In this document: piece after piece, positions 1,668 to 45,246 of the stretch | How positions within the stretch are numbered: position 1 is the first letter of the stretch | Layout of the letters: every line of letters starts with the position of its first letter | Source: a virus | Taxonomy: Duplodnaviria; Heunggongvirae; Uroviricota; Caudoviricetes | Virus record (IMG/VR): IMGVR_UViG_2711768010_000017 | Length of the DNA stretch: 45,246 bases | Reading direction: 5' to 3' (one strand) | The notes under the pieces: model-generated | What the model was told of the DNA's origin: nothing | Database searches by the model: none | The model's input: only the letters and a program-made list of their open reading frames with translations | Translations under genes and position numbers: made by a program

Positions 1668-2765
1668 ATGGCGTACTATAACATAGAGAAACGACTAAAA
1701 TCCGATGGCACACCACGCTATCGCTGTAATGTGATTATCAAAGAAAAAGGTGTTATCACTTACAGGGAAAGCAAAACATTCCCTAAACATGCTCATGCCA
1801 AAACATGGGGCGCACAGAAAGTGATGGAATTAGATCTATATGGCATTCCATCATCAAATGCTGTTGACGGACTTACAGTCCGTGACTTACTACACAAATA
1901 TTTAAATGACCCAAATGCCGGAGGTAAAGCAGGCCGTACTAAAAGATATGTGCTGGAACTGCTTATGGATAGTGACATCTCCGCGATCAAACTATCTGAA
2001 CTGACAGAAAATGACGTAATTGAACATTGCAGGCTAAGAAACAACGCTGGTGCAGGCCCAGCAACAGTCAGCCACGATGTTAGTTATCTTGGCAGTGTTC
2101 TGGATGCGGCAAAACCTGTATACGGAATCAATTACACATCAAACCCGGCGAAAAGCGCTCGTCCATATCTACTTAAACTCGGTTTGATTGGTAAATCAAA
2201 CCGTCGTAATCGTAGACCAGCATCTGATGAACTGAACATGCTCATTGAAGGCCTTCAACAACGATCTACTCATAAATGCTCAAAAATTCCGTTCGTTGAT
2301 ATCCTCAAATTTTCTGTGTGGTCCTGTATGCGAATCGGAGAAGTATGCCGGTTACGATGGGAAGATCTCGACCAGGAACAAAAATCTATACTAGTAAGAG
2401 ACAGGAAAGATCCACGTAAAAAGGAAGGCAACCATATGAAAGTTGCCTTGCTTGGGGAAGCCTGGGATATCGTCCAGCGACAACCCAAAAAATCAGAATT
2501 CATTTTTCCATATAACAGCACTTCTGTTACCGCAGGATTTCAGAGGGTAAGAAGCAAATTAGGTATTAAAGATCTGAGATACCATGATTTGCGTAGAGAA
2601 GGGGCAAGTCGCTTATTTGAGGCTGGTTTTAGTATTGAGGAAGTCGCTCAGGTTACAGGGCATCGTTCATTAAACGTGCTATGGCAGGTATATACCGAAC
2701 TGTATCCGAAATCTTTACATAATCGTTTTGAAGAACTCCAAAGGAGCAGAAATAAGACCTCTTGA
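1668..2765 (+). CDS. int: Tyrosine integrase of the dusA-targeting family
   Basis: 365-aa ORF with ATG preceded by GAGG RBS; C-terminal catalytic region HDLRREGASRLFEAGFSIEEVAQVTGHRSLNVLWQVY with R/H/R/Y-type signature; sits next to dusA 5-prime end. Confidence 0.85.
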   Translation: MAYYNIEKRLKSDGTPRYRCNVIIKEKGVITYRESKTFPKHAHAKTWGAQKVMELDLYGIPSSNAVDGLTVRDLLHKYLNDPNAGGKAGRTKRYVLELLMDSDISAIKLSELTENDVIEHCRLRNNAGAGPATVSHDVSYLGSVLDAAKPVYGINYTSNPAKSARPYLLKLGLIGKSNRRNRRPASDELNMLIEGLQQRSTHKCSKIPFVDILKFSVWSCMRIGEVCRLRWEDLDQEQKSILVRDRKDPRKKEGNHMKVALLGEAWDIVQRQPKKSEFIFPYNSTSVTAGFQRVRSKLGIKDLRYHDLRREGASRLFEAGFSIEEVAQVTGHRSLNVLWQVYTELYPKSLHNRFEELQRSRNKTS

Positions 2766-2767
2766 CA

Positions 2768-2783
2768 CTGTTTATCCATACAG
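2768..2783. promoter_or_regulatory. LexA (SOS) box 1: CTGT-N8-ACAG
   Basis: CTGTTTATCCATACAG directly after a TTGACA -35 hexamer (2762-2767), upstream of the dinI-like gene. Confidence 0.65.
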
Positions 2784-2795
2784 TTAAAAATAATA

Positions 2796-2811
2796 CTGTA
2801 TACAAATACAG
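2796..2811. promoter_or_regulatory. LexA (SOS) box 2: CTGT-N8-ACAG
   Basis: CTGTATACAAATACAG, 15 bp upstream of the dinI-like ATG at 2826; close to the E. coli LexA box consensus. Confidence 0.7.
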
Positions 2812-2825
2812 TGTAGGGGACTTTT

Positions 2826-3074
2826 ATGCGTATTGAAATCTGCATAGCCAAAGAAAAAATGACTAAAATGCCAACCGGTGCTGTGGATGCGTTAAAGGAA
2901 GAATTAACCCGACGCATCAGTAAACGTTATGACGATGTAGAAGTGATCGTAAAAGCCACCAGCAACGATGGCCTTTCTGTTACGCGCACCGCTGATAAAG
3001 ATTCAGCTAAAACTTTTGTTCAGGAGACTCTGAAAGATACCTGGGAGTCTGCTGACGAGTGGTTTGTTCATTAA
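2826..3074 (+). CDS. DinI-like SOS-response protein (prophage copy)
   Basis: 82-aa product [11 protein letters not shown]...[11 protein letters not shown] resembles E. coli DinI in length and conserved C-terminal TWESADxWF motif; preceded by tandem LexA boxes. Confidence 0.85.
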
Positions 3075-3105
3075 GTTCATCATCTCTGGACACCATTCAC
3101 TTGTA

Positions 3106-3135
3106 TTGACTTTAAGATCATTAAATTGTAATAAT
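3106..3135 (+). promoter_or_regulatory. Candidate sigma70 promoter for the membrane-protein/RT operon
   Basis: TTGACT (3106-3111), 18-bp spacer, AATAAT (3130-3135); predicted start near 3142. Confidence 0.35.
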
Positions 3136-3141
3136 TCAAAG

Positions 3142-3280
3142 GGATGGGGCAGGTTTTTCCTCTTGCGCATGCAAGGGCGGCTCTGATAATGAACAGTAAT
3201 ATTTTACTGTTGAGCTTATGCTCACTGATCCTGCCGGGCAGGATGTTCAACGGTTCCAATATATCCTGCCCCTTCCGCTT
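3142..3280 (+). ncRNA. Structured 5-prime leader or candidate RT-associated ncRNA (several stem-loops)
   Basis: GGGGCAGG (3145-3152) complementary to CCTGCCCC (3265-3272); local hairpins cttgc-gcat-gcaag (3162-3175), aacagtaa-tatt-ttactgtt (3192-3211), and perfect palindrome atcctgcc-g-ggcaggat (3228-3244). Confidence 0.25.
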
Positions 3281-3296
3281 TTAAAAAGGATCTTTT

Positions 3297-3848
3297 ATGC
3301 ATGACAATATTTGGTTTACATATAAAGCACGTATCCAAGCGCACCATCGACTAGAATGGCTTGAAAAACACTCTCAATTTATCCTCGTTTGGTATGCTAT
3401 ATTGAGTGCGGTACTTTCAATTGTAACGTTGCGATTTCCAAAGGTTCTAGGAGATAATACAGATGTCGTTGCGGCGATACTTTCAGTGGCTCTACTGGGT
3501 ATTTCTCTGATCGTATCTAACCTAGATTTTCGTGGTCGAGCAATAGCCATGAGAAGGAATTATATTGCACTACAGCGACTCTATTTTGACATTACCACCA
3601 GTCAACAGTTATCTCTTGAACAGAAAGAAAAATATTTTAATTTGCTCAATGAGGTTGAGAATCACCGTGACATAGATGATAAAATTTCAAGGGTAACTCA
3701 AGTTGGACTTAAGACGAGGATCCCCACACAAAAAGAAAAAATAATTGTTATTTTATGGATATTACTTCGAATATTTATTACTGCCGCACTTTATATACTC
3801 CCATTAATATATCTTTGGATTGACTATGACTGCAAGCAGAATTTTTAA
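3297..3848 (+). CDS. Membrane protein with three predicted TM helices; candidate effector partner of the downstream RT
   Basis: 183-aa ORF with AAGGA RBS; hydrophobic segments FILVWYAILSAVLSIVTL, VVAAILSVALLGISLIVSNL and C-terminal IIVILWILLRIFITAALYILPLIYLWI; AT-rich; overlaps RT start by 23 nt. Confidence 0.7.
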   Translation: MHDNIWFTYKARIQAHHRLEWLEKHSQFILVWYAILSAVLSIVTLRFPKVLGDNTDVVAAILSVALLGISLIVSNLDFRGRAIAMRRNYIALQRLYFDITTSQQLSLEQKEKYFNLLNEVENHRDIDDKISRVTQVGLKTRIPTQKEKIIVILWILLRIFITAALYILPLIYLWIDYDCKQNF

Positions 3849-5196
3849 AAAGTCATTCTCGAAAAAAAATCTTCTAAAAGTATACTCTGAAAAAATCAAA
3901 GAATCAGGAGCGATTGGCATAGATCGGATTCGCCCATCAAAACTTGATTTGACAATAAAAAATGAGATCACTTTCATTTTTGAAAAGGTTAATTCTGGCA
4001 ATTACAAATTTACAGCATATAAAGAAAAATTAATATCTAAAGGCGCTAACTCTACACCCAGACAGATTTCCATACCAACTGCTAGGGACAGAATTACTCT
4101 TAGAGCTCTCTGTGAATGCCTTACGGAAATATATCCTAAGTCCAGATTAAAACTACCACATACAGTAATTGACTCATTGAAAGAAGCATTAAACAACAGT
4201 CTATATGCTGAATATGCAAAAATAGATCTTAAAAGTTTCTATCCTTCAATTGAACATAAATTGATAATTAATGCAATAAAAAATAAAATTAGAAAAAAAG
4301 AAATTAGACAGTTAATAACATCATCATTAATCGTGCCTACTGTAAGTGGAACCACAGGAAGCAAAGGTATCCCTAATAATACCAGAGGAGTACCTCAGGG
4401 ATTAGCGATATCAAACATTTTAGCTGAAATATCACTATCTAATTTCGATGATGAAATCAATAAAATGCATGACATATGGTACATGCGATACGTTGATGAC
4501 ATTCTTATTTTAACACCAAAATATCAAGCAACAAAAATAGCTTCTCATATCATTGATAAGCTTCAATCATTAAATTTAAACCCACATCCATTAAATGAAG
4601 AGAACTCAAAATCCAAAGTAGGCAGCTTGGATGAAAGTTTCAACTTTTTGGGCTACCACATAAAAAATCGAGAATTATTGATAAAACATGAGAGCATTCT
4701 TAGATTTGAGTCATCCTTAGCAAAAATTTTTACTGCATATAGACACGCTCTACTACAAGCTAAAAATAAGCGCGATAAAGAACGAGCTGTTGCATATTGT
4801 CAGTGGAAACTAAATCTTAGAATTACGGGATGTGTGTTTGAAGGTAAACGATTGGGATGGGTATCGTACTTCTCACAAATAACGTCAACAGCTCAACTTC
4901 GAGCTGTTAATCATACGATCAATAATCTTATCCGCCGATTCGGCCTTTCATCAGAAATAAAACCAAAGTCTTTGATTAAAACTTTCTATGAACTCCGCAG
5001 GGGTAGAGCGGAGACTTTTAAATACATACCTAACTTTGACAATCTACATATATCTCAGAAACGAGAAATTGTTTCTATGTGGATAGGGAAAGAGAATGAA
5101 AAAAAACTTAGCAATAGTGAAATAGAGAGAAAATTTAAATTTAAAATTGCGAAATCAGTAAAAGAGCTTGAAGAGGACATTTCAGGGATATCATAG
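3826..5196 (+). CDS. Reverse transcriptase (defence-associated type, retron-like or UG/Abi-like; family unassigned)
   Basis: RT motifs in order: GIDRIR, RQISIPTARDRITLRAL, KIDLKSFYPSIEH, GVPQGLAISNILAEI, YMRYVDDILIL (YxDD), FNFLGYHI; about 200-aa C-terminal extension; first ATG at 3826 (track start 3820 is TTG). Confidence 0.85.
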   Translation: MTASRIFKKSFSKKNLLKVYSEKIKESGAIGIDRIRPSKLDLTIKNEITFIFEKVNSGNYKFTAYKEKLISKGANSTPRQISIPTARDRITLRALCECLTEIYPKSRLKLPHTVIDSLKEALNNSLYAEYAKIDLKSFYPSIEHKLIINAIKNKIRKKEIRQLITSSLIVPTVSGTTGSKGIPNNTRGVPQGLAISNILAEISLSNFDDEINKMHDIWYMRYVDDILILTPKYQATKIASHIIDKLQSLNLNPHPLNEENSKSKVGSLDESFNFLGYHIKNRELLIKHESILRFESSLAKIFTAYRHALLQAKNKRDKERAVAYCQWKLNLRITGCVFEGKRLGWVSYFSQITSTAQLRAVNHTINNLIRRFGLSSEIKPKSLIKTFYELRRGRAETFKYIPNFDNLHISQKREIVSMWIGKENEKKLSNSEIERKFKFKIAKSVKELEEDISGIS

Positions 5197-5260
5197 ATAT
5201 GTAATCCATTAAATCCTTTATATATAAAGCAATAAACACACTATTTAAATTCACAAATCA

Positions 5261-5294
5261 GCCGCAGTATCCTGCCATGACAAGTTGCTGCGGC
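5261..5294. terminator. GC-rich hairpin between RT stop and tfa stop (convergent terminator candidate)
   Basis: gccgcag (5261-5267) pairs with ctgcggc (5288-5294); loop contains TATCCTGCC. Confidence 0.3.
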
Positions 5295-5308
5295 ATATCA
5301 CAAAACGA

Positions 5309-5893
5309 TTACTCCATAACAGGGACCGCAGGCCACTCAATATCAGGTGCAGTTGATGTATCAACACGGTTCAGCAATACCCGATACTTTTTCCATGCTT
5401 CCAGCAACGAGATTTCTTCCTCCGTTGCAATTTCCAGATCTGCAGCATCCTGAAGCGGCGCAATATGCTCACTGGCTACCTGCATCAGGTTGTTTTTTGT
5501 TTCTTCCGCCTCCCGGATCCGGAACAGTTTTTCTGCTTCCGTATCCTTCACCCAGGCTGTGCCGTTCCACTTCTGAAACTCCCCTTCCGGGGATAACCAG
5601 GTAACATTTTCCGGTAACGGACCGAGTTCAGAAATAAATAACGCGTCCCCTGACGCTACGTCATAAACCGTTTTACCCCGATGGTCTTCAACGAGATGCC
5701 ACGATGCCTCATCACTGTTGAAAACAGCCACAAAGCCAGCCGGAATATCTGGCGGTGCAATATAGGTACTGTTTGCTGGCAGACCTGTATGAGGCGGAAT
5801 ATATGCGTCACCTTCACCAATAAATTCATTAGTTCCGGTCAGCAGATTATAAATTTTTATGGTCCGTGGTTGTTCACTCATTCTGAATGCCAT
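5309..5893 (-). CDS. tfa: Tail fiber assembly protein
   Basis: 194-aa product with Tfa-like N-terminus [24 protein letters not shown]; immediately downstream of the side tail fiber gene. Confidence 0.85.
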
Positions 5894-8800
5894 TATGCAA
5901 GCCTCACAATATAGTTAAATGCGATGTTTTTGACGGTGTTTTCCGCGTTACCCGCAGCGTTAACGGTGATGGTATGTCCATGTGAACCAATCGCAACGGA
6001 GTGCGTATGAGCACCAATACCGACAGTATGCGCGTGTGCACCTGCAGATGCTGCTGTGCCGGACAGTGAGTGGCTATGATTACCATCTGTACTGGTATTC
6101 GCTAACCACCCCGTAGACATACCTACTGAGCCTTGTACACCCCAGGTATTTTGACCTGAGCTTGTATAACCATATTGATAAGTATCTTTAAAAACACTGG
6201 GGTTAAATCGACGGCCATCTCTATGGCTGTGATTACCAGCTGCATTCGTGCTGCCACTTAAACTATGGGTATGCGCACCAGTGTTATTCGTGGATTTAGT
6301 GCCGTAATCAAACGACGATGTGGTTTTCGTCCCCAAATCCGTACTGGATGCGCTGGCGCTGTGGGTATGCGATTTAATGCCGTCCTGTTCCTGAGACAAT
6401 ACGGCCCGACCACTGGCAGGTTTGCCCTTAATCGTCCAGCCACGCATATCAGGGATCACACCTGACGGATAAACGGCTGCAAGTTTCGGGTAAGCAGATT
6501 TGTCAAAAGTCTGTCCCTGCATCAGGGCATAACCAGACGGAACGGTATCTGATGGCCACGGGATTGGTGCACCGACTGGGTAGCTTTCTGGTGGAAGATT
6601 TTTCGAGGTATAAACTTCTGCCCAGTCTTCCTCAAAACCATAACCGTCTCTTGAAGAACGGTAGAACAGACCACCATTTCTGTAATGCGCCTTCATCTGC
6701 AAGGTCCGGCAACTTCCGACTCCGGTATAGAAGTTAACCAGAATATAGCTGTTGCCAGAGCGGGTGACATTGTAAGCGCCTGATTCGGCATTCCATGGAA
6801 CGCCACCATCCGCATCGGCATATGTATCCGTTGCCCTTCTGGCAAAAGCAGCCACATGCGCGGCGGTTAAAGTAATATCTTTGGAACCATCAAACTCAAC
6901 ACCAGAAACCAGTCTTGGCGTTTGCAGCTTTGTTGCTGTCAATGCGTTACCGTTCAGACTTGCAGACAGTTTGGTTCCAATAACCAGTTCGCCGGTTGCG
7001 TTATCAATAACAAACGGTCTTAATGTATTCCAGCCACCATAAACATCACCTTGATTGGTAAGCAGCAGGTAAGTTTTAGCGCCATCATTACGCCATAATG
7101 CACCATACTCCCCACCTATCATTCGAATCTGATTACCACCACGCGCTACAATTTCGTCTGTGGCAAAAAGTTTTTTGCACGACAAGTTATCGTTAACGAT
7201 TAACGAATGAGACTCATAAAAACCACGCCCACTCTTAAAATCAAGGATAACGTCCGCCGCGATACATTCAGTCGCCGGATTTGTTGCCCCAAACTTATAG
7301 GTCGTATCATTAACAACGAGATCAGCACCAGGTGCGGATATTGACAGGCCATCTTCGAGAAACGCAAAAACAGGGAAAGCAGCGCCATCAACATAGAACA
7401 CAGAGCGCAAATCATCGCCCTTATTACTCATCATTATTGAGTGGATGGCTCGTTCATTGTTTTGATATTGCCAGAACATTCCATAAGCATAACGCCCCCT
7501 GTCAGTCCAGCCACCAGGCATAACAAATCCGTTAAACTCGCAGTTATTCATCGGATCGCCTGCGATTCGCGTTGCCGTGGTGATAATGACCCTTGATGCC
7601 AGTTCGCTTACTGAGCCAGCAGAACGCATAACAACAACAGGGTAATATTTTCCAGATGTTGCACCTGCAGGAGCGTTAACCCGCACATAACGCATACCAC
7701 GCTTATCAGCAAAGTCTGTTTTACTGACCGCGTTAATGTTGTTCAGGAAGCGTCCCTTATCGGGTATATCAGCGCCGTTCTGGTCTTTCTGCAGACGTTT
7801 CTCAGCATTGTCATTGGCTGCTTTTACTGCCTTTGGCGTTGCCGCCAGCGTTTCAGACGTGCTATTAGTCGCACTACTGAGCTGTACTATCCCCTTTTTC
7901 GTCGTGCTCGCATCCTCAAGCGCCACGGCGGATGCAATATCCTCTGCACGTTTTGCCGCTGTCTCGGCGCGCGTTGCCGCGGATTCCGCCGTACTTTTGC
8001 TCTGTGCTGCCGCCGTCGCACTGCCAGCAGCCTCTGTCGCCTTCGTGGATGCTGTCGTGGCGCTGCCCTTCGCTGCGGACGCTTGTCTGGTCGCCTCATC
8101 TTTTGAAGCAGACGCCGATGATGCCGATGACGCCGCCGAACTGGCGGACGATGCGGCAGCCGTTTTTGAGGATTCTGCGCTGGTCTCCGACGCTTTCGCG
8201 TTCGTCTCCGATGTCTTCGCTGCGGAAGCAGACCTCGCTGCTGCACTGGCCTGTTCAGTGGCTTCGCCAGCCTTCGTTGTGGCTGTTGAAGCGGACGATG
8301 CGGCGCTTTCTGCCGATTTTCCGGCGGCGCTAGCACTGGCTGAGGCCTGCCCGGCACTTGTTGACGCTGCACTGGCAGACGACGCAGCCGCTGTTTTTGA
8401 GCCTGCTGCTGCGGAGGCACTCTGTGCTGCTGCCGTTTCAGAGGACTTAGCGTTTGTCTCAGACGTCTTTGCCGCCTTCGCGGAATTTCCTGCCGCCGTT
8501 GCCGAGGAAGCGGCATTACTGGCGCTCGAAGCTGCGCTCGTTTCTGATAATTTTGCCGCCTCTTTTGAAGCCGACGCATCTCTGGCTGAGGTGGCTGCTT
8601 CTGACGCTTTCGTGGTCGCGGTGGATGCAGAAGTGGCAGCTGATTGTTGTGACGCTGCCGCATTCGTTTCTGACGTTTTCGCCGCACCGGCACTGGTGGC
8701 CGCCGCGCTTTTTGAGGACTCTGCAGCGGCAGCACTTTTTGATGCTTCAGTGGCCTTTGCTGATGCCGTTCCTGCGCTGGAAGACGCAGACTGAGCCGAC

Positions 8801-9291
8801 GAAGCGGCCTGTCCGGCTGACGTGCTGGCTGCTCGTGCTGAGCCTGCAGCATCAGTCGCACGGGTTGCCGCCTCACGGGCTGATGTGCTGGCATCGCTGG
8901 CTGATTTCTTCGCGGCTGCCGTGTTCTGTGCCACCGCGGACGCGTTACGCGCCACCTCTTCCACCATCAGTTCAAAGCGGCGCAGTGCCTCAGGACGGGC
9001 ATCATCCTCCGTCATGGCACCGAGAAAATCATTCAGCGTACCGGGTCGGGAATCTTCATACACGGTGATGGTCCCGGCATGTGACGGCGGGAATCCTTCC
9101 ACCAACAGAATAACGCTGTACTGACCGTACTCAACGTCCATGCTGTAACGCCCGGCTTCATCCGGATTTTCTGAGGCCAGCGTGTTCACCACCACCGTGG
9201 TGCTGTTACGTTTTGCTTTCAGCTGGATTGTGCAGTTCTGTACCGGTTTTCCTGTGCCGTCTTTCAGTACACCTGAAATCTTTACTGCCAT
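5893..9291 (-). CDS. stf: Side tail fiber protein with long Ala/Ser/Thr-rich repeat region and His-rich C-terminus
   Basis: N-terminus [26 protein letters not shown] as in lambda Stf (first ATG at 9291; track start 9297 is GTG); HxH repeats GAHTHS/GNHSHS near C-terminus. Confidence 0.9.
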
Positions 9292-9302
9292 ATTCACCCC
9301 AC

Positions 9303-30551: not shown

Positions 30552-31604
30552 TTATTTCCCCACCAGCTCGTTTATCTCTTTCACTGTCTGATTAAACCGC
30601 TCTGACTCAAGCTCAACACCTAAGGCCCGACGCCCCAGCGCCATTGCTGCTTTTATTGTGGAACCGGATCCCATAAAAAAATCAGCAACCAGATCACCTG
30701 GTCGACTACTGGCATTGATTATTTGCCTGAGCATATCCGCCGGTTTCTCACACGGATGTTTCCCCGGGTAGAACTGAACGGGTTTATGCATCCAGACATC
30801 GGTATAAGGCACGGAGACTGATACGGAGAAATAGCGCCGGAGAGATTTAAACTCATCCAGCAATTCAGAATATTTACGATTCAGTGAATCATAAGATGCC
30901 ACCAGCTGGTGGTGTGGTTGTTCCAGTTGTTGTTCCTGAAACTTCTCTGCCGCTATACGGGAAAACAGTGCCTGTAACTTCCGATAGTCAGCCTCATTCG
31001 GCAACTGCCACTGACTGGCACCAAACCAGTGGGAAACCATATTTTTCTTACCTGTGGCTTCGGCAATTTGTTTTGCCGTTATACCCAGTTCGGCACGAGC
31101 ATCCCTGAAATACGATATCAGCGGTGCCATTATGTGCTGTTTGAGTTCCCTTTCTTTTGCCGCATAGCCGTCACTTTTGCCGCGATATGGCCCCTGGTAA
31201 TGTTCAGCAAACAGAACGCGCTCTGTGGCAGGAAAATATGCGCGCAGACTTTCTTTATTACACCCATTCCAACGTCCGGACGGCTTCGCCCAGATGATAT
31301 GGTTAAGCACGTTGAAACGTTCACGCATCATGATCTCAATATCAGATGCCAGGCGATGCCCACAGAACAGGTAAAGGCTTCCGGCAGGTTTCAACACCCG
31401 CCAGAACTGGGCCAGACAGTGGTCCAGCCACTTAAGGTAATCTTCGTCCCCTTTCCACTGATTGTCCCAACCGTTGGGTTTCACCTTGAAGTAAGGCGGA
31501 TCGGTAACAATCAGGTCAATGGAATCATCAGGCAGGGACTGAATAAAATGCAGGCAATCAGCGTTGATTAAATCAACACTGTTTATTTTTACAGTATTTT
31601 TCAT
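30552..31604 (-). CDS. DNA methyltransferase (N6-adenine/N4-cytosine, beta-class motif order)
   Basis: DLIVTDPPY near the N-terminus and FFMGSGST (FxGxG) near the C-terminus. Confidence 0.85.
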
Positions 31605-35868: not shown

Positions 35869-36191
35869 ACTTTCAGGCCTCTCTCATGTAACCAGTGGGT
35901 TGCACGCAGCCTGGCGTTTTCCTCACCGGCAAGCAGTGAGCGGATAATCCCGACCGCCTCGCTGTCGTCGTCCTTCACCGCGGTATGAAGAGTGATACCC
36001 CGGGCCATGCCACGCTTTATCGTGATGACGCCTTTTTTCTCCAGTGCGCGAAGATGTTCCACCGCTGCATTCACTGAACGGTATCCCAGCATGGTTGCCA
36101 CCTCCTGATTGGTTGGCGGGAAGCCACGTTCTTTCTGGTAAGAAATCAGCATATCCAGCACCTGCTGCTGGCATTGAGTTAACGTCGTCAT
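35865..36191 (-). CDS. LexA N-terminal DNA-binding-domain homolog lacking the S24 peptidase domain
   Basis: LTQCQQQVLDMLISYQKERGFPPTNQEVATMLGYRSVNAAVEHLRALEKKGVITIKRGMARGITL aligns by eye with E. coli LexA residues about 3-70; only 108 aa. Confidence 0.7.
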   Translation of the reverse strand: MTTLTQCQQQVLDMLISYQKERGFPPTNQEVATMLGYRSVNAAVEHLRALEKKGVITIKRGMARGITLHTAVKDDDSEAVGIIRSLLAGEENARLRATHWLHERGLKV

Positions 36192-36841
36192 GCCGCCATC
36201 TCCCTGACCAGTTTTTCCGCCTGCTGGCGAACCTGCGCCAGAAACGCCTCACCACATGCCTCAAGTTCATCGCGCCCGATGTAGCTGATTGCCGGTCCCT
36301 TCCAGGTCTTGTCGAAAACAGCAATAGCACCAGCGAAGAAAGCGCCTGTCGGCACCTGCTTCTCGTCCTTCGGGATAAACCAGGCAGGCAGTTCAAAACC
36401 AATACGCCCGCGAATAAAAGCAATATGATCTGCATCTTCCGGCCACCACACTTCGCTGGTGGCAGCTTTGATCAGGAAAACATAGCGTCCGCCCTTATCA
36501 CGCATGGCACTGGCATGTTTCATGATGTAACGCATGCCGGTGATGTATTGCCCTTCATGCTGACTGGCGCGGCTGTACGGGGGATTACCAAAGGCAGCAC
36601 CTTTAAGCTCCGCAAGACGTTCAGACCAGTCATGCGCCAGCGCGTTGTCTTCCGCAGTGTAATAAGCGGCACATTTGGCGTTATCACCATCAGTGAACAG
36701 ATCCAGAACAAACGGGCCAAACAGGGTGTTAATTCCCCAGAAAATGTTATCCGGCGTGCGCCACTGATCGCCCACTTCCTTCAGTTCATGGGCTGGTTTG
36801 TTCCGCAGCTCCACCAGCGCCTGGCAATATTTATTACTCAT
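36188..36841 (-). CDS. Phage Dam-like N6-adenine DNA methyltransferase
   Basis: FGNPPYS (NPPY) motif; first ATG at 36841 (track start 36874 is GTG). Confidence 0.75.
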   Translation of the reverse strand: MSNKYCQALVELRNKPAHELKEVGDQWRTPDNIFWGINTLFGPFVLDLFTDGDNAKCAAYYTAEDNALAHDWSERLAELKGAAFGNPPYSRASQHEGQYITGMRYIMKHASAMRDKGGRYVFLIKAATSEVWWPEDADHIAFIRGRIGFELPAWFIPKDEKQVPTGAFFAGAIAVFDKTWKGPAISYIGRDELEACGEAFLAQVRQQAEKLVREMAA

Positions 36842-37329
36842 TAAGCCCCCACGTAATTCCCTGACAGATACCACTCTTCACCCGATGCAGCGCGCTTGCT
36901 GCTTTTCCGTAAGCACCGCTCACGACGCGCCAGAAAATTGTTTCGTTCTGGCTGGGAGTGGCTTTCACGGAATGCCGCCATCCACACCGTTGCAGCACGA
37001 CGGTATAAGCCCCTGGACTCCAGTTCTTCCGCCTGGCGGGTCAGGCACAAAATCACCCGGGGATCGTTAGTGCCGACATAGAAATTGCGCACAGGTCTGG
37101 TTTCACGAACTGGTTGTGGTTCCGGCTCCTGCGCTCTCTCAGTCAGGCGTGGGAAATGTCTGCGTGTATCTCCTTCATAACGGTGAGCCACACGCCCACT
37201 CTGACGTAACTTGCTTGCTGACTGCAGAACGCGCTGCCGTGAGTAACCTGCAAAAGCATCCGCAATGTCTCCGGAAGTACACCCCGGATGGGCTTCAATG
37301 AATTTCTGAACTTCATTCAAAAGACTCAT
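36841..37329 (-). CDS. Hypothetical early protein (PerC-like by recollection)
   Basis: 162 aa from ATG at 37329; central LESRGLYRRAATVWMAAFRE segment. Confidence 0.35.
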   Translation of the reverse strand: MSLLNEVQKFIEAHPGCTSGDIADAFAGYSRQRVLQSASKLRQSGRVAHRYEGDTRRHFPRLTERAQEPEPQPVRETRPVRNFYVGTNDPRVILCLTRQAEELESRGLYRRAATVWMAAFRESHSQPERNNFLARRERCLRKSSKRAASGEEWYLSGNYVGA

Positions 37330-38383: not shown

Positions 38384-39212
38384 GACGATGCCCTCCGCTG
38401 ATATTCAGGAGACGGTGAATATGAAAATTAGCCTTATCCGCCAGACGAATACGTTCAGCTTGCAAGTTAAGAAGGGTTTCTACCAGAACCTGATGTGCCT
38501 GCGGATCCGAAAGAGTTACCTTGCGCAGAGCACGTAGTGCAGTTGTTACATAACTGAGTTTATGTAAGTCTTCATCATTCAGACGAGTGAGGGCTGGGAC
38601 AGTAGCCATGATGGCAGCCTCCTTGATCGGTGAAATACTTCCACCACCGGAAACGCCAATTTCGCTGGTGGTGAACTGAACGGGGTTGGCGTAACCGGTG
38701 ATCAAGGAAACCGGCGCATCTTTCGATGCCCCCGCCCAGCCCACCATAACTTTGATGTGAGCAAATGCGGACGATAAAAAAGACGCTGGCGCGTCATATA
38801 TCGCCTTGATCAATTCCAGGACGCCAATCCCGGCACCCGCTTTATAAGGTGCCTGAACAGTGTAACGTCCCGGAATGGCAGAATCAATGTGCTGGTGGTC
38901 CTTCACACTCAACAAAATCACGCCTGAATTTCCACAAAGGACTAAAGCACTCATGCGGGTAGTCTTTGCGAAGATAGATAACGCGCTGTGTTTCTGGCTC
39001 CCAACGAATAACATGAACATAAAGTCCTCTTCCGTCACGAAACCAGCGGTTAAGTTCCTGCACAACTCGCCCCCCACAGTCAGGTAAAGTTCTCTGTGGT
39101 TACTTACAGCCAGGTGATTTGGTAATCTGCATTCATGCCGTAACAACAGGTGTTCAGCGACGCTGACCACCAGCTGTTGCGACAAACGGTTATTTGCCGT
39201 TAAACTGTTCAT
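38376..39212 (-). CDS. Hypothetical early-region protein, no recognisable motif
   Basis: 278-aa ORF with ATG start overlapping the neighbouring gene ends; no Walker A motif. Confidence 0.5.
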   Translation of the reverse strand: MNSLTANNRLSQQLVVSVAEHLLLRHECRLPNHLAVSNHRELYLTVGGELCRNLTAGFVTEEDFMFMLFVGSQKHSALSIFAKTTRMSALVLCGNSGVILLSVKDHQHIDSAIPGRYTVQAPYKAGAGIGVLELIKAIYDAPASFLSSAFAHIKVMVGWAGASKDAPVSLITGYANPVQFTTSEIGVSGGGSISPIKEAAIMATVPALTRLNDEDLHKLSYVTTALRALRKVTLSDPQAHQVLVETLLNLQAERIRLADKANFHIHRLLNISGGHRHA

Positions 39213-44257: not shown

Positions 44258-44677
44258 TTACTCATCATCAATAGATGATACGCAATATTTATTTTTAAAT
44301 TTAAGGTTCTTTGGCGTAACTTCATCAGATATATCAAAACCGTCCAGAATTCTATTGAATGTAGCTTCTGGCATATCATCATGAACGGAAATCTCACCCG
44401 ATCGCTGCTTTCTAACCATGTTATCCACTCGCCAAATTATAGCTTCAGCGTAAACAACATAACTTGGATGCTTGATAAAGCGATGATCACCAGAATTCAA
44501 GACGCAAGACGGATCGTGGGGGACACCATCCTTGATACTAGAAATATTAACAACTAAAACACAATAACAATCGTTAACGGGGTAATAAACAGGATCATTA
44601 CAAATCACATGAAGATGATTGCATGGCCCAGTTGGGGCAAGCACAGTTCCTTTCCTGTATGGCTGATAATCCGTCAT
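44258..44677 (-). CDS. Hypothetical 139-aa protein, candidate toxin partner of the upstream Panacea-like protein
   Basis: ATG overlaps the stop of the upstream gene (ATGA); Cys/His-rich segment CNHLHVICNDPVYYPVNDCYC; no recognisable family. Confidence 0.5.
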   Translation of the reverse strand: MTDYQPYRKGTVLAPTGPCNHLHVICNDPVYYPVNDCYCVLVVNISSIKDGVPHDPSCVLNSGDHRFIKHPSYVVYAEAIIWRVDNMVRKQRSGEISVHDDMPEATFNRILDGFDISDEVTPKNLKFKNKYCVSSIDDE

Positions 44678-45246
44678 GATAATTGCAAAGAAAATTCCTT
44701 AAGTTTCTGAGATTCTTCCATTTTGCCAATTATACGATTAGCCTCATCCTCGCTTTTACCCTCACTGATCAGCATTTCTTTCAGGTCTATAGGCTTACGA
44801 GAATTGCCAGGATTGTGCCACTCTGGACAAACGCTTTCTAAATGCGTCATGTTTGCGAGATCAAATCGGTTCATATGCCCATACAGAGAATAGATTTCAT
44901 CTAAAATCCGGATATCTGCACGGCTCAACTCATCAAAGACCTCGTCTGCATCCATTTCCCTCGGATCTGAACGCAACAACACATCATGCCCGTTCGTCTC
45001 TATCAGGTTGTACCAGTAGTCACCAATACCTTCAGCCTTACCACGAATCAAGTTCAGCGTATTCGACATGACTGGACCAAATTTCATAGAGTAAAGGCTA
45101 TCTTCGCCGATCATCCTGCCATGCTTCAAAATCGACTTGCGGTTAGACAGATAGAGCAGCTTCATCAATTTCAGATATGCCATGCGCCCACCTCGCTTAA
45201 GAAGTAGGTATGCAGCCATTTGAGCTACTTTTTCTTCGCAAAACAT
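44674..45246 (-). CDS. Panacea/DUF4065-like (SocA-like) protein, candidate antitoxin; 5-prime end at window edge
   Basis: MAYLKLMKLLYLSNRKSILKHGRMIGEDSLYSMKFGPVMSN resembles the Panacea antitoxin domain signature as recalled; ORF reaches the window boundary. Confidence 0.55.
   Translation of the reverse strand: MFCEEKVAQMAAYLLLKRGGRMAYLKLMKLLYLSNRKSILKHGRMIGEDSLYSMKFGPVMSNTLNLIRGKAEGIGDYWYNLIETNGHDVLLRSDPREMDADEVFDELSRADIRILDEIYSLYGHMNRFDLANMTHLESVCPEWHNPGNSRKPIDLKEMLISEGKSEDEANRIIGKMEESQKLKEFSLQLS

Follow-up and report, generated by a model that had tools for sequence, protein, structure and literature searches.

Mestre et al. (2022; PMC9226505) described bacterial reverse transcriptases (RTs) of the UG17 group and showed how tightly these are associated with SLATT proteins, and three Escherichia coli UG17 operons (Eco1-3) have since been reported to protect against phages (Tang et al., 2025; PMC12632851). 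In these DRT10 systems, the RT active site, the SLATT protein and an upstream non-coding RNA (ncRNA) are each needed for defense, and the RT makes kilobase-long, protein-primed, single-stranded tandem-repeat DNA from an A-B-A' template within the ncRNA, with S456 as the priming residue in Eco3DRT10 (Tang et al., 2025). A cryo-electron microscopy study of Eco3DRT10 furthermore described two RT monomers per ncRNA and stem-loops SL5 and SL1 as the elements which set the template borders (Ramirez et al., 2026; 10.64898/2026.06.29.735271). Here we describe a locus of this type in a 45,246-nucleotide stretch of DNA from a virus of the Caudoviricetes (IMG/VR record IMGVR_UViG_2711768010_000017), referred to below as the window. 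We conclude with high confidence that the cassette at 3075-5229 (+) is a complete Eco3DRT10-type DRT10 anti-phage system, carried as cargo by a lambdoid prophage at dusA in E. coli. The system as such is already known and characterized, and the window copy shows a natural two-base template polymorphism with respect to the laboratory reference.

Several related systems provide the frame for this comparison. Eco1DRT10 and the UG17-A system of Escherichia sp. E3659 belong to the same family, produce tandem-repeat complementary DNA (cDNA) and depend on RT, ncRNA and SLATT, a three-part requirement thereby documented in another homologue (Sanchez-Nieto et al., 2026; 10.64898/2026.04.29.721553). The overlapping arrangement of the genes for SLATT and the RT, as in the window, is the predominant architecture according to the same study, which also reports that SbcB suppresses toxicity and that a phage SSB-like protein acts as the trigger, in E3659 rather than in the Eco3 type. 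Both systems differ from the window locus in that their ncRNAs have six stem-loops (the E3659 ncRNA being 143 nt long) and in the length of the repeat, with a unit of 8 nt for Eco1 (AATCGTGT) and one of 7 nt for E3659 (AGTAATA); in Eco1DRT10, in addition, the priming residue is a tyrosine. The DRT9 (UG28) and DRT3 (UG3+UG8) systems are likewise Class 2 UG/Abi RT defenses which make repetitive cDNA on an ncRNA template. DRT9 also shares protein priming, and the ncRNA architectures of both are reportedly related to that of DRT10, but DRT9 synthesizes poly-dA from a poly-U template, primed from a tyrosine within a hexamer, and the product of DRT3 is poly(dTdG).

With Eco3DRT10 (E. coli 703491, RT OKX54664), the window locus shares the order of ncRNA, SLATT gene and overlapping RT gene, an RT of 456 amino acids ending in serine, and a 137-nt ncRNA in which the five stem-loops and the numbering correspond. 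G86, G104, the U105-U106 and A120-U123 linkers and C116 of the ncRNA are common to both, as are R371, K385 and Y388 of the RT, and every residue or nucleotide reported as essential in Eco3DRT10 is present in the window. The two differ in the template, which reads CAAUGAUUC followed by CAAU in Eco3DRT10 and CAACGGUUC followed by CAAU in the window, and in one more ncRNA substitution, located in SL2. Near-identical E. coli RT and SLATT sequences also appear in the table of DRT10 loci published by Tang et al. (2025).

The RT open reading frame (ORF) ends at 5196 (+) and begins either at ATG 3826 (456 aa), the start annotated by RefSeq, or at TTG 3820 (458 aa). The same two-residue ambiguity affects OKX54664, whose record has two extra N-terminal residues from a misannotated start, such that S458 of the record corresponds to S456 of the paper (Tang et al., 2025, supplement). 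Among the PADLOC models, the protein matches RT_UG17 over its entire length (model positions 1-429 of 429; E=1.1e-158, 526.6 bits); Drt3a comes next with 130 bits, and Drt9 scores 69 bits. The six RT motifs lie at residues 31, 79, 132, 188, 219 and 272, and the catalytic YVDD (residues 222-225; window 4489-4500) is intact. R371, K385, Y388 and Ser456 are all retained, the last of these encoded at 5191-5193 (+), at the end of a C-terminus which reads ...KELEEDISGIS. A terminal serine, within the motif ELEEDI..S, is found in all 15 RT sequences compared (the window and 14 homologues); S456 is the published priming residue of Eco3DRT10. The OKX54664 excerpt given by Tang et al. (2025, supplement) covers 397 residues, of which eight differ in the window RT; the latter differs at 10 of 456 residues from the RT of E. 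coli K_EC180 (L018), which, like that of strain IHE3034 (L024), is identical to the OKX54664 excerpt.

The partner gene (3297-3848, +) encodes a SLATT_5 membrane protein of 183 amino acids, the putative effector, which is recognized by Pfam (1.3e-28, 100 bits; cut-off 29.5), by NCBIfam (8.5e-40, 136 bits; cut-off 60) and by the PADLOC model RTasSLATT (E=1.5e-56). By Kyte-Doolittle hydropathy, the protein has hydrophobic segments at approximately 27-47, 56-76 and 148-172, the last two of which are separated by a charged stretch. Only 4 of its 183 residues differ from the SLATT protein of L018, an Eco3-type locus. The SLATT and RT reading frames are different and share 23 nt, and the GC content of the pair (33.7% for 3297-5196) lies well below that of the whole window (49.7%) and of the flanking phage genes (42-43% for int and dinI, 47.9% for the tail-fiber assembly gene).

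A preliminary description of the stretch, made from its letters, had reported much of this: the overlapping gene pair at 3297-3848 and 3826-5196, its richness in AT relative to the flanks, the six RT motifs, and a three-helix membrane protein with a charged region before the third helix all agree with the present results. Its tentative suggestion of a SLATT-like fold is borne out by the SLATT_5 matches, and the proposed logic of a defense-type RT joined to a membrane effector corresponds to the UG17 RT and SLATT pair of DRT10. The RT had been presented as unclassified, however, and the pair as a possible new variant; the former belongs over its full length to UG17, a named group, and the latter has about 98% protein identity to the studied Eco3DRT10. 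That description began the element at 3106, which coincides with a TTGACT -35-like hexamer, and did not include the third essential component, the ncRNA at 3142-3278.

This ncRNA lies in the 222-nt gap between dinI and the SLATT gene, a gap which also contains a sigma-70-like promoter candidate. The latter was found by consensus scan at 3106-3135 (+) and consists of TTGACT, an 18-nt spacer and a TG-extended AATAAT, matching the consensus at 10 of 12 positions plus the TG; its -10 element stops 6 nt upstream of the ncRNA start. At an equal distance upstream of the ncRNA, a -10-like element (TAnAAT or TAGAAT) is present in 14 of 14 loci from other genera. From these sequence features we infer that 3106-3135 acts as the ncRNA promoter; independent transcription of the ncRNA has been demonstrated for a different DRT10 homologue (Sanchez-Nieto et al., 2026).

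The 137-nt element (3142-3278, +) folds with a minimum free energy of -57.2 kcal/mol (z = -4.58), a value equaled by none of 200 shuffled sequences. In the predicted fold, SL1 forms a GC-rich closing stem (3142-3153 paired with 3265-3276) around SL2 (3160-3177), Loop A (3178-3191), SL3 (3192-3211), SL4 (3212-3223), SL5 (3228-3244) and Loop B (3245-3264), all on the plus strand. With position 1 set at 3142, all published landmark residues of the Eco3 ncRNA fall on the right base (Tang et al., 2025; Ramirez et al., 2026): U43 and G44 in Loop A, the Hoogsteen pair of G86 and G104 at the base of SL5, U105-U106 as the 5' linker, C107 at the 5' edge of the template, C116 at the priming start and A120-U123 as the 3' linker, with G111, A117 and U119 also in their published places. 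The identification does not rest on the fold alone, because L018 and L024, whose ncRNA differs from that of the window at 3 of 137 positions in the case of L018 (110, 112 and one in SL2), carry GTTCAATGATTCCAAT at this place, a sequence that includes the published cDNA motif, GAATCATTG, in reverse-complement form.

Since Rfam 15 holds no family for this ncRNA, we built a covariance model of our own (R1) from three E. coli alleles and the minimum free energy fold, minus two weak helices between Loop A and Loop B. It was applied to 14 loci found via the RT protein in Xenorhabdus, Photorhabdus, Buttiauxella, Pseudomonas and Stutzerimonas, whose RTs are 57-83% identical to that of the window. Each of the 14 has one full-length match upstream of the SLATT gene (E 1e-28 to 2e-15), and all of them also show an ncRNA-to-SLATT gap of 15-26 nt, the SLATT-RT overlap and YVDD. 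In the resulting alignment, 96.7% of the base-pair cells hold standard pairs, as opposed to 47-56% when the partners are slid by one to three columns; double-sided, compensatory changes occur at 18 of 37 base pairs, and no shuffle equals the observed covariation score.

The template itself lies in Loop B at 3248-3260 (+), as placed by column-for-column alignment with that of Eco3DRT10. The loop reads GUU-CAACGGUUC-CAAU-AUAU in the window and GUU-CAAUGAUUC-CAAU-AUAU in Eco3, with the A-B portion, CAACGGUUC, at 3248-3256 and A', CAAU, at 3257-3260. The A-B-A' pattern is thus CAA(C)-GGUUC-CAA(U) at ncRNA positions 107-119, 3 nt past SL5, with three identical bases and a fourth that is compatible through G-U pairing. 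Relative to the Eco3 template, which L018 and L024 also carry, there are just two changes, C for U at ncRNA position 110 and G for A at position 112. The cDNA motif published for Eco3, GAATCATTG, corresponds to its template in reverse complement (Tang et al., 2025). As copying is described to begin opposite C116 and to end at C107, the cDNA repeat unit of the window allele is predicted to be 5'-GAACCGTTG-3'. Neither CAACGGUUC nor GAACCGTTG was found in the accessible part of the supplement of Tang et al. (2025).

The window template is the commoner allele in E. coli: in an even sample of 30 carriers, 24 have CAACGGUUC and six the Eco3 template, and 75 of 188 carriers are identical to the window over 3239-3290. 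Xenorhabdus has the same template as the window, and its CAACGG core is common to most Pseudomonas loci and one Photorhabdus locus; CAACGGUUC is probably also the older allele. No tracking of SLATT divergence with the template allele was seen in the comparison of L017 and L018: L017 has the template of the window and yet differs at 20 of 183 SLATT residues, while L018, with the Eco3 template, differs at four.

A mechanism for the window locus can be transferred by homology from the published Eco3DRT10, to which its proteins are about 98% identical. One ncRNA would be bound by two RT monomers, of which the monomer at Loop B would use the hydroxyl of its C-terminal Ser456 to prime DNA synthesis, opposite C116. 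The template would be copied as far as C107, where the SL5 anchor, through the contact of R371 with G104, is expected to impose a stop. The nascent DNA would then unpair, and its 3' end, GTTG, could re-pair with the CAAU of A' (C116-U119) by three Watson-Crick pairs and one G-U pair; repeated cycling would yield single-stranded DNA of tandem repeats, kilobases in length and joined covalently to the RT. Defense would need RT activity, the ncRNA and the SLATT protein together. As shown in other homologues, the host exonuclease SbcB may prevent toxicity of the system, and its trigger may be a phage SSB-like protein. The end point is most likely SLATT-mediated membrane damage and abortive infection.

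Some points weigh against this assignment. The template differs from that of Eco3 at two positions, and A (CAAC) and A' (CAAU) mismatch at their fourth base; the exact template combination of the window was not found among the Eco3 mutants in the accessible part of Tang et al. (2025). The A112G change opens a second possible register, GUUC-AACG-GUUC, with a period of 8, which could in principle make synthesis less precise, an effect that a cryptic site has in Eco1DRT10. Furthermore, defense, cDNA synthesis and the repeat sequence of the window allele are inferred by homology, and the covariation alignment was fitted to our own model, which favors the structure, although the margin is large. 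Finally, the two laboratories disagree as to whether cDNA rises or falls upon infection. As to the register, the G112 alternative would correspond to an 8-nt periodicity of CGTTGAAC; the 9-nt repeat is much the more likely of the two, because the SL5-anchored boundary argues for C107 as the stop (Ramirez et al., 2026).

The same observations bear on a rival reading, namely that the window holds a decayed or inactive DRT10 in which the substitutions (10 in the RT, four in SLATT and the A/A' mismatch) abolished repeat synthesis or defense. The fourth-base mismatch, a B segment one base off the tested Eco3 template and the fact that some E. coli copies are visibly broken by IS2 speak in its favor. 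However, both ORFs are intact with YVDD, R371, K385, Y388 and S456 in place, the template in question is the one carried by 24 of the 30 sampled E. coli carriers, and its recurrence, entire or as the core, in Xenorhabdus, Pseudomonas and Photorhabdus argues for purifying selection. In addition, the published Eco3 mutagenesis found tolerance of substitutions anywhere in B and at the fourth base of either A or A', with some 3 nt of A-A' identity being enough (Tang et al., 2025). We therefore regard decay as improbable and argue that the window allele works, because its ORFs are intact, its essential residues are conserved and its template is widely distributed.

An RT of another retroelement class, be it a group II intron, a retron or a diversity-generating retroelement, instead of a defense RT is a highly improbable reading. 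Similarities of this kind exist below threshold: the RT scores 144 bits with the group II intron RT/maturase model TIGR04416 (cut-off 300) and 58 bits with the retron St85 model (cut-off 235), and a sequence comparison with the PDB, in which no DRT10 RT and no SLATT relative was found, returned group II intron RTs as the best matches to the RT (E=4e-14). Against this stand the full-length UG17 match of 526 bits, far above all other RT models, a partner gene encoding a SLATT protein and an associated RNA which is that of DRT10. The preliminary description had named group II intron and diversity-generating identities as the readings that would overturn its own, and neither was found: an Rfam search of 2700-5400 at E <= 1 gave no group II intron RNA and no retron msr/msd RNA, and the same interval holds no long near-identical direct repeats of the template repeat/variable repeat type, the best being 34 nt at 71% identity. 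A retron is further rejected on the ground that the upstream RNA fits the DRT10 model.

That the RT and SLATT proteins act without an ncRNA template, 3142-3278 being merely the terminator of dinI or the leader of the SLATT mRNA, has a probability close to nil: the GC-rich SL1 followed by UUUU (3279-3282) does resemble an intrinsic terminator, and the element does lie between dinI and SLATT, but its absence from dinI-bearing prophages without DRT10 assigns it to the cassette rather than to dinI, covariation among genera supports its five helices, and in Eco3DRT10 the RT binds and copies the ncRNA, whose deletion, or the scrambling of any stem-loop, abolishes or severely reduces defense (Tang et al., 2025).

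The DRT10 cassette, comprising promoter, ncRNA, SLATT, RT and a 33-nt tail, occupies a defined site between the DinI-like gene (2826-3074; Pfam DinI 1.1e-19) and the tail-fiber assembly gene (5309-5893, -; Caudo_TAP 4.6e-44), as the preliminary description had placed it. Its borders follow from the comparison with cassette-free prophages: homology to the empty prophages L021 and L023 ends at 3074, the dinI stop, and restarts at 5230, with 35 bp between, which defines the cargo as a discrete block of 2155 bp. A search with dinI matched 1735 E. coli records, 1725 genomes having a close relative of this gene, and in most of 24 sampled rows the homology ends at query base 265, corresponding to window position 3074. 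Other prophages carry different content right after this stop, such as the type III secretion system effectors EspM2/EspW (O157:H7, L020) or a ynaM/ydfK/recombinase module (L022). The position just after the dinI-like stop codon is hence a variable cargo slot of E. coli lambdoid prophages, in keeping with the cargo slot proposed in the preliminary description. A direct repeat of 71% identity (3296-3329 and 5198-5231) was considered as an insertion scar and rejected, as it looks like chance AT-rich similarity. Neither of the upstream neighbors is regarded as part of the system: dinI occurs at 92-98% identity in cassette-free prophages, and published systems are unaffected by deletion of the associated tyrosine recombinase (Tang et al., 2025), which speaks against a role of the integrase.

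Among 5426 complete E. coli genomes, 188 (about 3.5%) contain the cassette, always on the chromosome and at 96-100% nucleotide identity. A distant blastn search with the cassette against the GenBank phage collection gave no match, and it was seen only in chromosomal prophages. The carriers are lambdoid prophages with at least three integration sites, namely dusA (the window and L001), prfC (L017, L018 and L024) and yecD (L019). In the more divergent carriers L017 (prfC) and L019 (yecD), the DinI-like gene (3734-3953 in both) is annotated as frameshifted, with SLATT and RT intact. In some E. coli records (H18-H20, e.g., NZ_CP082087.1) IS2 interrupts the cassette, which fits an occasional inactivation of a potentially toxic system.

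Upstream of the DinI-like gene, the window contains dusA (542-1579, -) and a tyrosine integrase gene (1668-2765). Beyond the cassette, the minus strand carries the tail-fiber assembly, tail-fiber, Lom and J genes of the lambdoid prophage. Within the tail-fiber assembly gene, a full-length match to the Rfam small RNA IS009 was observed at 5352-5550 (-), its score of 223.6 bits exceeding the gathering score (117). In the tail-fiber protein (5893-9297, -; 1134 aa), the N-terminal half is a long low-complexity stretch rich in Ala, Ser and Thr (about 7800-9200, GC 59-63%), which varies in length among otherwise near-identical prophages, the same gene being 3024 nt in L001. In the early region of the prophage, at 38664-38852 (-), a C4 antisense RNA (82 bits) adjoins an isrK Hfq-binding RNA (64 bits), a pair which resembles the antirepressor control leader of the P1/P7 type. 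Two DNA methyltransferase genes, both on the minus strand, are also present, one type II-like (30552-31604; PADLOC MTase_II 3.3e-152) and one for an N6-adenine enzyme (about 36188-36874); no partner nuclease was seen for either in the prophage, and both probably serve in anti-restriction or are orphan enzymes. At the window's far end, a protein with a Panacea/SocA antitoxin domain (44674-45246, -; Pfam 1.8e-18) overlaps by 4 nt with a downstream ORF of 139 aa (44258-44677), for which neither Pfam nor PADLOC gave a match; together, 44258-45246 (-) may encode a toxin-antitoxin pair of the PanA type.

In a wider context, DRT10 shares with telomerase, composed of TERT and telomerase RNA, its repeat-addition processivity on a short RNA template, internal in both cases, along with a realignment sequence and a 5' boundary defined by a stem (Tang et al., 2025). 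Telomerase differs in extending chromosome ends from a DNA primer and in being much larger, whereas protein priming, two RT monomers per ncRNA and a function in phage defense are features of DRT10. The latter is a compact, protein-primed enzyme which adds repeats in the manner of telomerase, and a relationship of this bacterial enzyme to telomerase has been proposed. To this picture the present locus adds small points which leave it unchanged, namely that the template of the commoner allele differs from the laboratory one, that the cargo has sharp borders at 3075-5229, and the distribution of the cassette. It seems unlikely to us that the natural polymorphism between CAACGGUUC and the laboratory Eco3 allele CAAUGAUUC is functionally meaningful and not neutral. 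If it were, the repeat sequence or the 8-nt register of G112 could alter the yield or precision of the cDNA, its sensitivity to SbcB or the threshold of SLATT activation; template alleles would then change the phage range, and prophages would diversify the product of a telomerase-like enzyme.

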